This document shows, piece after piece, positions 46,929-64,000 of a stretch of 64,000 nucleotides of DNA (position 1 is its first letter; every line of letters begins with the position of its first letter). Source of the stretch: Pristiophorus japonicus (lineage: Eukaryota). The notes under the pieces were generated by a model, which had not been told where the DNA came from, did no database searches, and saw nothing but the letters and a program-made list of their open reading frames with translations. The stretch covers positions 44,640,001 to 44,704,000 of the forward strand of contig NC_091999.1 in the NCBI RefSeq assembly GCF_044704955.1, in the 5' to 3' direction. Both the position numbers and the translations under genes were made by a program.

Positions 46929-47043
46929 CTGTAATAGAGAGATAAAAGAATGAAGCTGAGGTTTAGTGCTCTGGGGCATTTATCTCAGGGTTTGTCAAAC
47001 GGCTTCCATCAGATGGAAGTGTGAGCGGATTGAATCTTCCCAC

Positions 47044-47171
47044 CTTCACCAGAGTGATGGCTGTACTGTAGGAAATGCTCAGGAAGAACAGGATGATGAA
47101 TGTGGAAGCGGTTGTCCAGATTTTGTCGCTCTCGTCCTAGTACTCTTCACTCCAGATGTGGTCTGAGGAAT
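47044..47171 (-). pseudogene. IGHM: IgM transmembrane exon TM1 with in-frame stop
   Basis: Reads DSSDHIWSEEY*DESDKIWTTASTFIILFFLSISYSTAITLVK, with the conserved antigen-receptor TM motif; TAG at 47137-47139; AG acceptor 47172-47173, GT donor 47042-47043. Confidence 0.9.
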
Positions 47172-47879
47172 CTACGGGGATGTAGGGGAGGAAATATATT
47201 CAGATCGTTTATTAATGCGGGATGTCATACTATTAATTTATTTCCTCTTTTCTTTCCCGTAAGGTATTAGTTTATACTCTAATTTAACATTGAATGTATA
47301 CCTTGTGTTAAGTTAATCACTCTCAGCAACCTCTCTCTGTGCCTCACTCCACAGTCGCTCTTCCATTATGATCCTCTTTTCGTCCGTTTTGGAAAATATG
47401 ATAGTTTTTCTTCAATCTCAGAGGATAATTGATTTTGGATGACTTTGTTACGATTGATCATTCCGGAATAATATGATGAAATATCGAGTGAGGATTACAG
47501 CTGGATCTCTATTGTTTTACCGGTAGGTTAAGGTAGTTAATTATTTGGAGCCTGCCAAAGGGGCTATTTAAGAGATCAGTTGTGAGTTTTTACCTTGTTT
47601 ATTTATTTGTTAAGACAATGGTCTGACCATAATTAACATATCGGTTTGCTAGAACTATACTGATCCAGTGTATGTGTAAGGATAGAATAGTGAAATGTGA
47701 GATATTATGGTATCAGGAATTATTTATTCTGGCCAAGCATTGGTACTTTGTCCGGCCAAAAACTGCATTTTAATTGTCATTCGTCTATACCGGACGTTTT
47801 TGTTTGTGCTCTTTACTGTTTATTTGAGTGCATGACTATCTCTTGTTCTGGATTAGTTCATGTTTCTGTGTCTCTGTGA

Positions 47880-51981: not shown

Positions 51982-52373
51982 TCATTGACAAGAATTGACG
52001 GTGTCCATCAGAACAAGGGAAATGTTCACAAAACTGGGTTTACCGCTGGATTTATTGACGATTCTGTTGGTGATCTTCAAGGGGATCGCTTCATGTCCCA
52101 CCACACAGGAGTAAGAAGCGCCGCTGGCCCACTCCTCGGCTGCAATGGATAGCAGGCTGTACATGAAGAAGGAGCTGCTGCAGTTCTCCGCCATCACTTC
52201 GGTGTTGTTGTAGTTGCCGGAATCCACCGGCTTGTCATTGACGGTCCATTTGACGAAGATCTCTCGGGGGGTGAAACCTCTCACTAAGCAGGTGAGGCTG
52301 ACCAACCTCTGAGCGGAGACTTCTTCTACCGGGGGCAGGAGGACAGACACGGCCGGTTCCCGCCGATCTTTCG
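51982..52373 (-). CDS. IGHM: IgM heavy chain CH4 exon plus secretory tailpiece
   Basis: [34 protein letters not shown]...[11 protein letters not shown]...[22 protein letters not shown]; internal membrane donor G|GTAAA at 52043; tailpiece has the NIS sequon and penultimate Cys. Confidence 0.96.
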
Positions 52374-53287
52374 CTGTAGAACAGTTAGAATAAAGGCCAA
52401 TGAACTGGACAGTTCCAGAGACAATGGGGGTGAACTTTAACCTAATGCAGCGGGCGGGTTGTGGTCGTGGAGGTGGTTAAATTGGTAAAAATCGGAATCC
52501 CGACCGCAACGCGCCCACTCCAGGTTGTAATATTATATTTGAGTAAAATATTTAAATGAGACTGGAATCTTCTATTTTAACCACCATTTGGTGTTTAACC
52601 GTCGCTGGTCCGGTTTGACACACTGTGTAAATCCCTGCAGTTACAGCGAGGCGGGGACTGCTGCACCCAGGTGGTAATTGCCCTTACACCTACCTCCTGG
52701 ATCCAGGGTCCCTGCCTAACCCACCCCCCGCGATCCGAGACCTCCTCACTCGGCTTCTAATCCTCCCGTTCTCCCGGGTGGCCTGTGAGACCACCGCCCA
52801 CAACTCGCCTTCCTTATTTAATTTTAGCCAATTTCAGGTGGTTAGATGTGAGAGAAATGGATACTGCGTTGAATTTTAACGCTTTTCCTTTTCCCCTCTG
52901 GGGCCTTTCTGGATTTCCATCCCGCAGCAGAGGGAACACAATCTTTCTCTCTGAAATCTTGAAGGGTTGGTCTGGAAAATTATATAGAATTTACTGCACA
53001 GAATGAGGATATTTGGCCAACTGGTCTATGCCGGTGTGTATGTTCCACACAAGCCACCTCCTAGCTCACTTAATTTAATCCTAATAACATACCCTTCTAT
53101 TCCTTTCTCACACATGGACTTATCCACTTTCCCCTAAAATACATAATGTCAGGTCACAGAGTGCAGAGTTCGTGGAATTACCAAACTGAATGATCAAAGT
53201 AGCCCATTAAACATTTTATATAATGATTGGCTCTTGCACATGCCTTAGTCACAGTATCTCACTTATTGCAACAATCTCCCCGCTCAC

Positions 53288-53596
53288 CCTTTTCCTTGTG
53301 GATGGAATCTCTGATCGGAGTCGGCATATCCTGATGGCTCACCACGCAGTAGAACTTATCCCCACTCAGCCAGTCTTGTGTCGAGATGTTTAAGTTGCTG
53401 ATCACACTGTTGGGATCCTCTCCCGATTGGACGGCAATCTCTGATTTCAAAGCCTCCTTTTCTCGGGTCCAGGACACGGTGAGCCCATAAGGAGCATCAG
53501 ACACGACGCAGGTTAAGGTCACCGTCGCCTCCAGTAAGACCTGTTCCAGTGACGGTGGGCGAAGAGTGATTTTTGAATCACTGCATGGGACATCCA
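53288..53596 (-). CDS. IGHM: IgM heavy chain CH3 exon
   Basis: [32 protein letters not shown]...[13 protein letters not shown]; canonical AG/GT; 309 bp, open. Confidence 0.95.
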
Positions 53597-55547: not shown

Positions 55548-55865
55548 TCTGAGATCTGCTGAAGTTACGGCTTTGCGTGACCCCTTCATGAGTGACTTGG
55601 CAGGTGTAGACCGAGCCGGTGAACCATTCCTCGGCAGGGACTGTCAGCCGACTGGCCGTCGAGAAGTTCCCGTTCACCTCAAAGACGGGAGAGGTGACGA
55701 AGCCCGAATCCATGAGTTGTCCACTCTTCAGCCAATTCACGGTCAGTGACTTTGGCCGGAAATCGATGATTGAACACACGGCGCTTGCATATCTGCTGGT
55801 GGTGATTTGTTCAGTGGAACTCAGCGTGAGGAGAACAGTTGGAGGACCTATGTCCGGTTCAGGAT
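55548..55865 (-). CDS. IGHM: IgM heavy chain CH2 exon
   Basis: [47 protein letters not shown]...[15 protein letters not shown]; canonical AG/GT; 318 bp, open. Confidence 0.95.
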
Positions 55866-56511: not shown

Positions 56512-56811
56512 CTGGCATTGTGATAGCCCAGACCGACACACCACGTCGAACCTCGCAGAAGATTGTGCTGCTCCCCACATCTGACTTGGTGATGGTTAAC
56601 TGGCTGCTCTGGGTGTAGATTCCTTTCTTATTGAGCACTGACGGGTAGGTCTTCAATGCAGTGGTGATGGGATCTTTATCTTTCTTCCAGGAAAGGCTGG
56701 TGATGTCGGGGGAGTAGTCCATCGCCAAACAGCCGTACGTGATGGAGCCATCGGTGCTGGGTTGTTCACAGGAGGAGAGCAGGGCGTAGAGATTGGGGGG
56801 AAACGGTGTTA
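56512..56811 (-). CDS. IGHM: IgM heavy chain CH1 exon
   Basis: [44 protein letters not shown]...IFCEVRRG, shark C-mu1 pattern; AG acceptor 56812-56813, GT donor 56510-56511; 300 bp, phase 1/1, open. Confidence 0.96.
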
Positions 56812-57559
56812 CTGAGAAAGAATGGCCCATTGAACAAGTTAGACTCTGTAATCCATGCTTATAAAAGAAAGAAACAACTCTAAATCTGACTGCAGAATAA
56901 ACTAATTCCACCATTTTCCCATCAAAGACTACACGGGCATTTGAGTTTCTGTCAGTTCCTTCATAAGCACCTGTCGATGCCCTGGTCAGGAATACACCTT
57001 TCTCTCCCCGAGCTCTATCACATTACAGACCAAGAACCTTTACACAACTCGCCAATAAAGAATCCTTCATTGGTTCATACAATAGAAGAACAGAGGCGTG
57101 TTCCTGCTTTTTCGGCCTGCATTTATTTCTCAATCAGCACCATTTCTGGTCCTTTATTTAATTGCAGTTTGGGGAAGTTCGCTCTGTGCACATTGCCTGC
57201 AGTGTATCCCAACAAAACAACAATGACTGCACTTCAAAGTAACAGCGGATTTCCTGCTTCGGACGTTAGCAAAAAACCCTCTAAATTTGCCTACCACATA
57301 ATTCAACAGATAGCATTGCCATAGTCTAGTTTCTAAGATTCAAGCTGGAGGTGAATCGCGATTGAGTCGAATTTCTCCCTTATTTCCTCAGCATTTTAGG
57401 AAGAGCGATGTCACTCAGTGCTTGTGATCTGGGCTCTATCCCATCCTATTGAATGCATGTCTCTTGAGTTTCCTCCTCCATCCCATTCAATTAATAATCC
57501 GAATAAAATACCTTTCCAAAATCCGGTTAATTGGAAGTTTCTCCTTAAATGGCCCATTT

Positions 57560-60050: not shown

Positions 60051-63000
60051 CCCCGTGGTGTTTCGGAACTGCTCCTTCTGACTGTCAAAATCTGGGTTAC
60101 TGATCTCTTTTCTGCGGCGACTCCTCAACCTTAAAGTCAATCTTTTACGTTTCTCACATATACCAGTTTCTTAAATAACTAGTTAAATGACACTCCCCGG
60201 AATACACGATCACAATCCAGAAGTTTTACAACCCGTCAGGAGGACTGCTGATTCTCACACAGTGAGCAGGCGCACAGGAACAGAACTGACAAAAACGGTG
60301 CAACAACGGTGCTCCAGTGAGAGAGACCAGTTCTATCTGTTAATTTCAATGAAGCTCTTTGATTTCTAATGTATTTCTTGTCAATTTCCAACCACCTCAA
60401 CTCTGCAGATTTTTTGAAATTAAACTGATATTTATTTGAGAAACTATTCAACTTCCAGCCATTCCTCCCTCTCGGTCGACTATCTTGTAAACCGTGTAAA
60501 AATTAATTTCCCTGAAAATAATATCTGGAAATAATTCTCATTCCACGGAAAGTGCTGCGCGTTAAACGGGACTAGGTAACAGGGTAAGAATGTCACAATC
60601 CAGGAGACATATACATTGAAACCTGATCACCCACTGATTTGACATATTTGCAATAGTAAATATAACCTGTAAAATCATCGAGGCAAAATCAACTAAAATA
60701 TTAAGCGATAGCTTATCGAACTCAGCACAGCCGAGTTATACATGCATTATCTTCTAAATTAATTAGGAATTAATTAAACATTCTCTCCAACCCTTGTGAT
60801 AATGTAATAACTGTAATGTTGACCAGTATGCAATGCAATTGCCAGAGATCATTTATGTTTAATGAATTAGAACGAATATCACATTCTAAGTTTGTGTTCG
60901 TGTTTGCTGATTATTGGAAATACTCTGAGTACCTGTCTGGCACTTCCTCCTCAGAAGCATACGTACCTGGAACTTTTGAAATTAAATTAATGTGCTTGAA
61001 TTTCAGTCTTACTGATACAATTAATGAATAATAATTTAAAAACCTTTTCTGCCTGGCAACTTGTGATATATTAAGGTTTACTTAACTTACCATAACAATT
61101 CATCAACAGTAAAATTTTAAGCAGCATATTAATACATAAATACAATCAGAAAAATAAATTATTTTTCTTAACTCAAATCACATTTGACTAATTGACGATA
61201 ATTACGCAGTTCTACTTCTGTCCCGTTCTCTACCGATACATTTTTAAATTCTACATATTCTGACATAACAAAAACTGTGTCTATTTTCAGAGTACATTGC
61301 ACATGATGGATTGAGGAGTGGACTATTTTAAATAATTCACTGTCCGGCCCGGGTCACAAGTCCGATGTGCTGTAAACCACTTGTTTACTAAACTGGACTC
61401 TCGAGCTGAAATATTCTCCACAATCTTAACTTCCTAAAAATGGTTTTCTTAATTAAAACCAGTTTGCAGTCAGTAGCAGAGCTTCTGCTATTTAATAACA
61501 CAGACAATCATTTACAGTTCACTCCCATTATTCACACAATGCCCCCAAATTAATTATTAAATACATTCTGCTATTTCTTGAAACTAATTTACAGAATGGT
61601 TAGTGTAAAACTGTAGGATAACAAATCATTCAGACCATCTGCAACACTGAACCTGAATGAGCAAATGGAGGAGAGACTTTGTTCATCAATTTAATATTAA
61701 TAATAATTAACATAATTCTCAGATATGACCTGTGCTTTGTCTACCGTTCTATCCCGTATATAGCACCGCTTTCGGAGAAAGGAAGTTGTGTTAAATTCTA
61801 AACAAGATGAACATTTTTTAAGTAAATTAATCTGCTTGAATTTCAATGGATTATTTGCCTATCTCCAGCCTATGCAGTCTTGAATTTGAATATAATCACA
61901 TGAATAATTCTTTGACTGCCGGTGACGCCTGACTCACAGCCTCTGATCTTGCAAACTGTTTAAGATTAGTTTACTGATAATTCTATCGGTATCAAACAAA
62001 ACACAATAGTGATTCAATAACAAAGTTCGGTTGCACAGTAAGAATTTCATATTAAATTAACAAAATGCAATTTACAACACGGCTTTGAGTTATAATTAAA
62101 GACACTGCTAATCATCTCTGTAAACAGGAGGTAACAAGTAACTGAACTCCCGACTCAAACTGAACACACGGTGGAATCAATATGTTGTCAGTGAACTAAT
62201 TTCAGGCATAATTAATAATTGTATCCAGCCTCTAAAAGTTTCTGCTCCTCTTAATGGAGCCCAGTGTACTGCAGGATTTTGGAATGCGAATAATATTAAG
62301 AAAATTATATTGATATTATAACATATTTTAAGAACATTGGAAGATAGTATCGCATTATAATATTATAATCGGTTTGTTAATAGTAATTTATTTCAGCTAC
62401 AACCTGAATAATTGCTAATTATATAGCTGGTAATTACAGTTACGTTTTACTCAGTAAATATCAGCATCGTAAACATAAATTTATAGTTCAATATATAATT
62501 ATCACCAATAATTGTTGTGTTAAAATATATTTCAATGATTTCTGATTCCTAAAACCTTCCTGTTCTCTGCCTACAATCTGCTTTCAAACAGTTTCAAACA
62601 CATATCTTGTTTGTATTCGATCAGGAACCTGCTGCTGCCCGCTGTCACCGATATTAAACATTGTAGAAACGCCAAATAGTTTCACAAATTTTTGGTATTC
62701 TGAATAACAGCGGCACAAACTCTCCTCAGCAGATCAATACTAAATCACATCACTGAGGGGCGGACAGAACCTTTCATGAACAGATCCTTCATTCTCTAAA
62801 CCATTTCATCAGAATTAAATGTATCATTGCAAAAAGTCTCTTTACAGAATCACCGAAGCCGCCTAACACTAAAATAACTAATGATTGAATTCAACTGAAA
62901 TATAAAATAATGACAGCAGAATTGTGATTTGGTGGATCATGTAAAATACATTAATGTTAATATTATAGCATATTTTAATAATAATGGGTGATATAACTAC

Positions 63001-63595
63001 ATCATTATAATGTTAGTAATATTAATTTAAATCAGGTCCATCTGGAATTTAAATCAGGTCCATCTGGAAATGTGTTAATTTTTCAGTCCTTAATTACAGC
63101 AACACTTCACGTATTGAATCTGTGCATTCGGGAACATTCGGTCAGTAGATGACAAATGTAATTTTCACTAAAATCTTTAAATTCCTTAAGAATATATATT
63201 GAGCGCTAAGGTTTCTGTTATGTGTCTAAAATGTTCTTTCAAAAATATTTAAACACAATGTTTGTATTCGATCAGAAAAACTGCAGCAATCATAGGTCAC
63301 CGAGATTAAACATTGCAGAAGTGTCAAACAGTGTAACAACTTTAAAGTATTTAACGTAACTCAAGCACAGAAACTCGTTAGCAGATAAACACCAAATCAC
63401 TTCAACAACAACTTATGTGGAGAAACAGTTGAATTCTATAATCACATTGTAGCAGAATTACATAAAACATTGAAAAACCTCAATAGAGAACCCACCGAAT
63501 CCAAGTTTCAGTGAACGAAATAATTATTAAAATAAAGAGAAATGTAAAATAAAGGCACAAATACAACAGTTGCAGAATGTATGAATGTTCCTTAC

Positions 63596-63660
63596 CTGCA
63601 ATCACCGTCACCATGGTCCCTGGTCCCCAGTAGCCCATGGCGTCCCTATTCCCGTGGTCC
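63596..63660 (-). CDS. IGHJ: IgH J segment, probably fused to a D segment (DHGNRDAMGYWGPGTMVTVIA)
   Basis: WGxG motif (WGPG) followed by TMVTV; phase-1 donor G|GTAAGG at 63595; heptamer CACAGTG abuts at 63661-63667. Confidence 0.93.
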
Positions 63661-63688
63661 CACAGTGATAGGAACCCGTACACATATT
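63661..63688 (-). promoter_or_regulatory. Recombination signal sequence with 12-bp spacer
   Basis: Plus strand reads CACAGTG + ATAGGAACCCGT (12 nt) + ACACATATT (5/9 match to ACAAAAACC); nothing nonamer-like at 22/23 spacing. Confidence 0.75.
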
Positions 63689-64000
63689 GCATTCAGTCTC
63701 TGCTCAGTACTGATTCTCAACATTCATTCGAAATACACATGCACTTCAAATACAAATTCGCTTCTTATCAAGTTTAGAATTTAGCCAACAGTTTGCAGAA
63801 CAAATAGAAGGAGAACACAGTTCTCACCAGCTCCCTGCAGGTATCGGGCACAGTGAATCGAGCATCATGTCCAGCTCTGCAATTGTTGACACTGTTAACA
63901 TTAAACAGGAGCACAACCGAAACCTCCCTCTGTACATTGGTTAGAGTGTTACATTTTCACCATTGAATTATCAGTGTCTTAGTTTTGTAAGAAGCGGTTT

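Follow-up and report, generated by a model that had tools for sequence, protein, structure and literature searches.

The window, the whole stretch of 64,000 nt analysed here (assembly positions 44640001-44704000 of contig C23), carries on its reverse strand what its sequence identifies as a cartilaginous-fish IgM cluster, a V-(D)-J-Cmu minilocus. The constant exons were matched with shark IgM proteins, and the J end of the cluster is preceded by an RSS near the edge of the window. The features, all on the minus strand, are as follows.

63689-64000, minus strand: V-D1 intervening sequence, assigned by flank alignments
63688-63680, minus strand: nonamer of the D1 5′ 12-RSS, AATATGTGT, assigned from sequence and homology
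63679-63668, minus strand: spacer of 12 nt, D1 type
63667-63661, minus strand: heptamer CACTGTG of the D1 5′ RSS
63660-63650, minus strand: 5′ 11 nt of D1, GGACCACGGGA, by hand comparison
63649-63644, minus strand: putative junction of 6 nt, ATAGGG
63643-63596, minus strand: JH segment, assigned to an older D2-J join, WGPGTMVTVIA
63595, minus strand: GT donor
56516-56812, minus strand: Cmu1 exon, approximate bounds, open
55549-55863, minus strand: Cmu2 exon, approximate bounds, open
53292-53585, minus strand: Cmu3 exon, approximate bounds, open
51985-52377, minus strand: Cmu4 exon and secretory tail, approximate bounds, open
47041-47172, minus strand: IgM membrane exon, with an in-frame TAG at about 47139-47137

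The heptamer is separated from the Trp codon of J (63629, minus strand) by 31 nt, and the fused segment reads DHGNRDAMGYWGPGTMVTVIA in the J frame with no stops. The first-pass annotation had described exactly this, a J segment behind a 12-spacer RSS with extra nucleotides and a stop-free 31-nt interval, and its description is borne out at 63688-63596 of the minus strand. It had also placed the only nonamer-like sequence at 12 nt; the nonamer there differs from the consensus at 4 of 9 positions, against 7 at a distance of 22 nt and 6 at 23 nt. The window contains 21 exact heptamers, and this one alone has a nonamer with four or fewer mismatches at 12 nt. Scored against the consensus alone, the nonamer is weak evidence, and the identity of the RSS rests instead on alignment with the D1 5′ RSS of split and canonical clusters. 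The D1 5′ nonamer reads AATATGTGT in the window, AATATTTGT in eight sister copies, and AGTATTTGT in the canonical D1 of this genome; the window carries one change more than the sister copies.

Within the 31 nt, the first 17 comprise the D1-derived bases and the junction, and the J portion is the last 14 nt, ACGCCATGGGCTAC, which places the boundary slightly away from the division into GGACCACGGGAATAG and GGACGCC... proposed earlier. By hand comparison, GGACCACGGGA matches 10 of 11 positions of the D1 sequence GGACTACGGGAGTGGGT from VD-joined sister clusters, the last 14 nt match the J of sister clusters at up to 13 positions, and the middle 6 nt match the D1 tail at only 2-3 positions. The middle bases are ATAAGG in seven of the nine copies that share this joint and ATAGGG in the window. 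They are likely to be non-templated bases added after 6-nt trimming of D1; a flush join whose D1 3′ end diverged later is a less likely source than trimming with non-templated addition.

The sequence upstream of the RSS also aligns with D1. As the first-pass annotation had anticipated, it matches the 5′ flank of a D segment and not the D2-J interval: against the canonical V-D1 interval it scores 34-38 (shuffle maxima 23-28), while scores against the canonical D1-D2 and D2-J intervals, 16-22, stay at the shuffle level. The split sister cluster L053 has the order V-23, 12-D1(17 nt)-22, 381 nt from the D1 3′ heptamer to the start of J, and a J with 14 nt before its Trp codon, so that D1 (17) and J (14) together give 31. 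This RSS-flanked interval of 381 nt is kept by nine sister clusters and is absent from the window, where homology to the nine split clusters stops at D1 and restarts at J. The distance from V to the J Trp codon is 503 nt here, against 886-901 nt in V-D1-D2J clusters; this upstream V segment has a 23-RSS and falls a short way past the window edge (its RSS is about 130 nt past the end, at locus L021). A free 12-D1-22 element, which would mark a V-D1-D2J cluster, was not found between this V and the window RSS. On these alignments, the cluster is assigned the configuration V-23 / 12-D1(D2)J - Cmu, or V-DDJ. At 63849-63855, about 277 nt downstream of the V RSS, there is an exact heptamer that lacks a nonamer; 13 of the 14 V-D1 intervals aligned have it in the same position, and it is possibly a vestigial D signal.

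The same 31-nt joint occurs in nine copies, termed family A, at separate places on C23, with 96-100% identity over 441 nt and about 12% divergence from split relatives. The suggestion that the genome carries a fixed D-J coding joint stands. In DNA runs X1 and X3, which derive from one sample (S1), a contig of 278-290 nt bridges the joint at a depth like that of neighbouring pieces. It has three differences from the window, every one of them a letter of the sister copies; the assembly may itself have been made from S1, though these letters are the sister copies' and not the window's. Because the same joint is present in nine duplicated copies and is bridged in DNA runs, the family-A joint is read as inherited; copy number, and not DNA from sperm or muscle, is the basis for calling it germline. 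Elsewhere in the window, a 22-nt tandem duplication at about 63024-63068 is absent from X1 and X3.

The genome census combined J and V motif searches with fetched loci; as these are pattern searches, all counts are lower bounds, and 16 loci that were repeat fetches of a place already covered were removed ahead of counting. The census of the window's classical V family covers C23 and small contigs (L001-L082, L090, L097-L104). Copies on small contigs are possible second haplotypes, while all nine family-A copies are on C23. At least 75 clusters carry the window's V family: 20 are V-DDJ, 9 are V-D1-D2J, 35 are VD-DJ, and 11 are fully joined. The V-DDJ clusters divide into family A (9, the window included), family B (7), family C (3), and family D (1). 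In each of the 75 clusters found, D2 and J at the least are joined, and none is fully split. Of 86 V-motif matches, 74 were neighbours of a J already classified and 1, on C15, was left out; the other 11, on fetching, proved to be fully joined (8), canonical (1), or of other V types (2). D-flank comparison scored 40 of 78 candidates and confirmed the nine split clusters among these. A CDR3 of the GRDVGWYSLAEW type is common to seven fully joined VDJ copies (L098-L104), several of which look degenerate.

Sister clusters provide evidence of a join older than the one in the window. All 44 unjoined J segments of this V family lie behind a 12-spacer D2-type flank, with a changed heptamer in 10, and the heptamer abuts the 14-nt J core directly in 12 and is separated from it by TT or TA in 32. 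Canonical clusters have a D2 of 13 nt. The interval before the sisters' J scores 120-140 against the canonical D1-D2 interval (shuffle maxima 22-28) and 26 against the canonical D2-J interval (shuffle maxima 27-33). Given the D2-type 12-RSS flank and the D1-D2 alignment, the unjoined J segments are classed as D2-J fusions in which D2 has nearly all gone. A J placed behind the 12-RSS of D2 explains how a D1 22-RSS could join "to J" under the 12/23 rule. The 12-RSS had been taken as the mark that sets the window's J apart; since all 44 unjoined sister Js lie behind a 12-spacer flank, a 12-nt spacer before J does not single out the window copy. What the sisters lack is the rest of the structure, as none of the 44 unjoined paralogues has the 5′ extension or the flank of the window, a sharing that the first-pass annotation had named as contrary to its reading. 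In ten VD-DJ clusters (L035, L051, L055, L058, L069-L072, L077, L078), the J heptamer is CACTCTG, so their last join is likely blocked.

Taken together, the element at 63596-63688 is very probably the fused D1-J end of a V-DDJ IgM cluster that arose through two successive germ-cell RAG joins, themselves likely, and was then duplicated before the window copy became a pseudogene. In the first step, D2 would have joined J in an ancestor of the V family and been trimmed to 0-3 nt, leaving J behind the D2 12-RSS (V-D1-D2J). In the second, the D1 22-RSS would have joined the D2 12-RSS with deletion of the 381 nt, and its coding joint would have involved trimming and, likely, a few non-templated bases. 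In the third, the cluster would have been duplicated to nine copies, as the common joint and the 96-99% identity indicate. The order of the two joins is suggested by the lack of fully split members among the 75 clusters of the lower-bound count, and RAG activity is deduced from the breakpoints. With one V-23 / 12-DDJ pair left, an intact sister copy would need a single somatic join, with most of its CDR3 fixed.

The first-pass annotation implied a single D2-J coding joint in a V-D1-D2J cluster, a configuration that would supply both the 12-nt spacer and the extra bases before J and that is present in this genome (nine clusters) and described in the accessible text of PMC2193153. That reading is refuted by the flank alignment and is exceedingly improbable: the flank, spacer, and nonamer belong to D1 and not to D2, the free D1 with a 22-RSS is absent, and V lies 503 nt from J instead of 886-901 nt. 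A somatic rearrangement from a lymphocyte, or a misjoin in the assembly, could produce the same layout, and V-DDJ is a normal intermediate in nurse shark lymphocytes according to the available part of PMC2435157. One joint at nine separate places, with derived flanks in common and later divergence, together with a bridging contig at ordinary depth in DNA runs, makes such an origin extremely improbable. An ordinary deletion of the D1-J interval without RAG would fit the six junction bases, which are not assignable with certainty, and the roughly 12% divergence from split relatives; with both of its ends at, or a few bases from, two heptamers, and with those borders used again by joints of 34, 33-34, and 19 nt in families B, C, and D and in L088, it is highly improbable.

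An alternative of a different kind concerns only the first step, which could have been a RAG hybrid joint that linked the signal end of the D2 5′ 12-RSS to the J coding end, swapped out the 23-RSS, and deleted D2 whole. The 0-2 nt before the J core in 44 sisters, against a canonical D2 of 13 nt, favor this possibility, and germline hybrid joints that swap RSSs are proposed for horn shark in the accessible portion of PMC2193153. The extra bases before the J core are ATA or ACA in families B and C and in L090, and these, like the retained TT and TA, are similar to how horn-shark D2 begins, as machine-read from a figure in the accessible part of PMC2191167. The joints of L031 and L088 are also heavily trimmed, to 19 nt, which argues that trimming suffices. 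A hybrid joint is therefore considered unlikely, and a trimmed coding joint is preferred because the retained bases resemble the start of horn-shark D2.

Joining of D1 to D2J appears to have occurred repeatedly. Joints measure 31 nt in family A, 34 nt in family B, 33-34 nt in family C, and 19 nt in family D. AU tests were run on 29 sequences (20 V-DDJ and 9 split), with groups chosen after viewing the trees. A single origin of the 20 V-DDJ copies was rejected (p 0.019 for the upstream flank and 0.008 for the downstream flank), as was the grouping of families A and B (p 0.004 and 0.0002, respectively). The position of family B differs between the flank trees, implying that clusters have recombined and that the number of independent joins is soft. 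As a safe count from these sequences, D1-to-D2J joining would have arisen at least twice in this V family and once in another (L088). By hand check, the joints of families A-D and L088 are stop-free in the J frame and hold D1 in one frame. With as few as three independent events, the shared frame is a weak hint of selection or of homology-guided joining.

The window copy itself shows signs of decay. Its V exon has a 1-nt deletion relative to L024, and it is the only one of nine family-A V exons that is not open. Its membrane exon contains the TAG at a site that is Glu in the sister clusters seen. Among the five family-A constant regions seen, stops are present in the window, L004, and L009, and absent from the aligned parts of L002 and L005. 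Judged by the V frameshift, the membrane-exon stop, and the extra nonamer change, the window copy is a pseudogene. The earlier expectation of an upstream long-spacer partner holds, since 503 nt before Trp there is a V with a 23-RSS; that the window copy could give a product is not supported, in view of the 1-nt deletion in this V and the stop in the membrane exon. The heptamers of the window 23/12 RSS pair are both present, with nonamer mismatches of 2 and 4, and family B has one of the window's nonamer changes in common. In family-A copy L009 (L125-L126), the constant exons begin over 10 kb after J and differ from those of other family-A copies, which suggests insertion or recombination between clusters, and its D1 heptamer is mutated. 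Within the J-Cmu intron of the window, CACAGTG-24-ACAAAAACG at 60258-60297 (plus strand) resembles an RSS, and its heptamer is conserved in both V families. It was rejected as part of the joint structure: the sequence is conserved intron, and of the sequences aligned only the window and L121, its closest sister, match the nonamer.

Use of a V-23 / 12-DDJ pair is hinted at by one contig (depth 6.4) in X6, a run of unrecorded kind that contains J-to-C spliced contigs. This contig joins a V end to a family-B DDJ trimmed by 1 nt, with 4 nt between them, and the join was found neither in the assembly nor among the joints listed for X1. The contig may be an artefact, since it stands alone, is out of frame (37 nt, by hand), belongs to family B and not family A, and combines two V types in a mosaic V part. 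No family-A piece was found among three X6 contigs compared with the window, and no X5 contig aligned to it; neither result means silence.

A second V family comprises 14 clusters at L083-L089, L091-L096, and L107 (on C3, C27, C90, and others). Eleven are canonical, V23/12-D1-22/12-D2-12/23-J, two have a single 12-D-12 element (V-DD-J, with D1 and D2 fused in L087 and probably also in L083), and one is V-DDJ (L088). All 11 fully split clusters found therefore carry second-family V. Downstream DNA was fetched for 5 of the 14, one of each kind included, and all have IgM constant exons; an initial reading of the canonical clusters as IgW, based on their V, was dropped for this reason. The genome search found no J with a perfect GTTTTTGT 22/23-RSS, and canonical J segments in this genome have the nonamer (G/A)GTTATTGT, with 12 matches. 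V-N-J contigs of second-family type are present in X5 and X7. By eye, the second-family V resembles the printed horn-shark 1113 V.

Germline-joined IgH clusters in sharks and skates have been known since the late 1980s. The single joint in the window is an ordinary case of this phenomenon, in a pseudogene, and V-DDJ is a further arrangement. The germline forms described in the accessible text of PMC2193153 for horn shark and little skate are V DD-J, V D1-D2J, and VDJ, and those in the accessible text of PMC5192425 are VD-J, VD-DJ, and VDJ. Clusters of horn shark and skate resemble those described here in having V-D-D-J-Cmu segments fused at RSS borders and mixed with split clusters, and V-D1-D2J (9 clusters) and VD-DJ (35) are present here too. 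The V-DDJ form, in which V is split off and both Ds are fused to J, is absent from the germline forms in these parts of PMC2193153 and PMC5192425. Unlike in horn shark and skate, all classical-V clusters found here are pre-joined, with later joins added on top of an earlier D2-J. The literature searched, a scope that lay outside most subscription journals and supplements, yielded no account of germline V-DDJ, and the available part of PMC12227049 holds nothing further on it. The V-DDJ of nurse shark described in the part of PMC2435157 available is a somatic intermediate; configuration and RSS logic are the same, but it is transient and cell-specific there and inherited and amplified here.

The nurse shark NS4 (kappa) light-chain genes offer another comparison. 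As given in the available part of PMC2193156, they are germline-joined through several independent joins among close split genes, with trimmed junctions, and some joined copies are pseudogenes. The present case differs in concerning the heavy chain, in being only partly joined, so that V must still be added somatically, and in its serial joins within one lineage with likely non-templated bases. RAG-like germline joining with trimming and P nucleotides is documented in the accessible parts of PMC2193156 and PMC2193153, and the former also states that no expression was detected for joined heavy chains of horn shark. Lee et al. (2000) regarded heavy-chain germline joints as hard to dissect for want of close split relatives (PMC2193156, available part). 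In the present genome, close relatives of both kinds, split and joined, are available, which makes it possible to resolve how many germline RAG events occurred at IgH, in what order, and with what junction chemistry; such relatives also allow testing of whether partly joined clusters complete rearrangement in B cells. The genome-wide record of stacked germline joins is for this purpose more useful than the single locus.

In horn shark, about 50% of clusters are joined and 1113 represents a second VH family (PMC2191167, accessible part), and the RSS swap of 1113 is a proposed germline hybrid joint (accessible parts of PMC2191167 and PMC2193153). The likeness to the present case is that germline RAG alters the RSS layout of a cluster, though the D1-D2 interval is inverted in 1113 and the intervals here have been lost by deletion. 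In horn shark the 1113-like family is monotypic, whereas here it is the source of all 11 fully split clusters. A broader and rather doubtful scenario is that a germline RAG event, possibly a hybrid joint, gave J a 12-RSS in the cluster ancestral to the classical VH family, and that germline RAG with TdT-like addition then acted repeatedly on the resulting 22/12 pair. The V-DDJ clusters would be working one-step IgM loci maintained by selection, their CDR3 near-fixed in the Tyr-Gly-Ser D frame, and full junctional diversity would have moved to the second VH family, which is minor in horn shark. Two further loci, L105 (C13) and L106 (C3915), have V exons of another type whose 23-RSS is good; in the fetched DNA, roughly 2 kb, neither D nor J was detected, and these are possibly TCR-delta-associated or IgW V segments.
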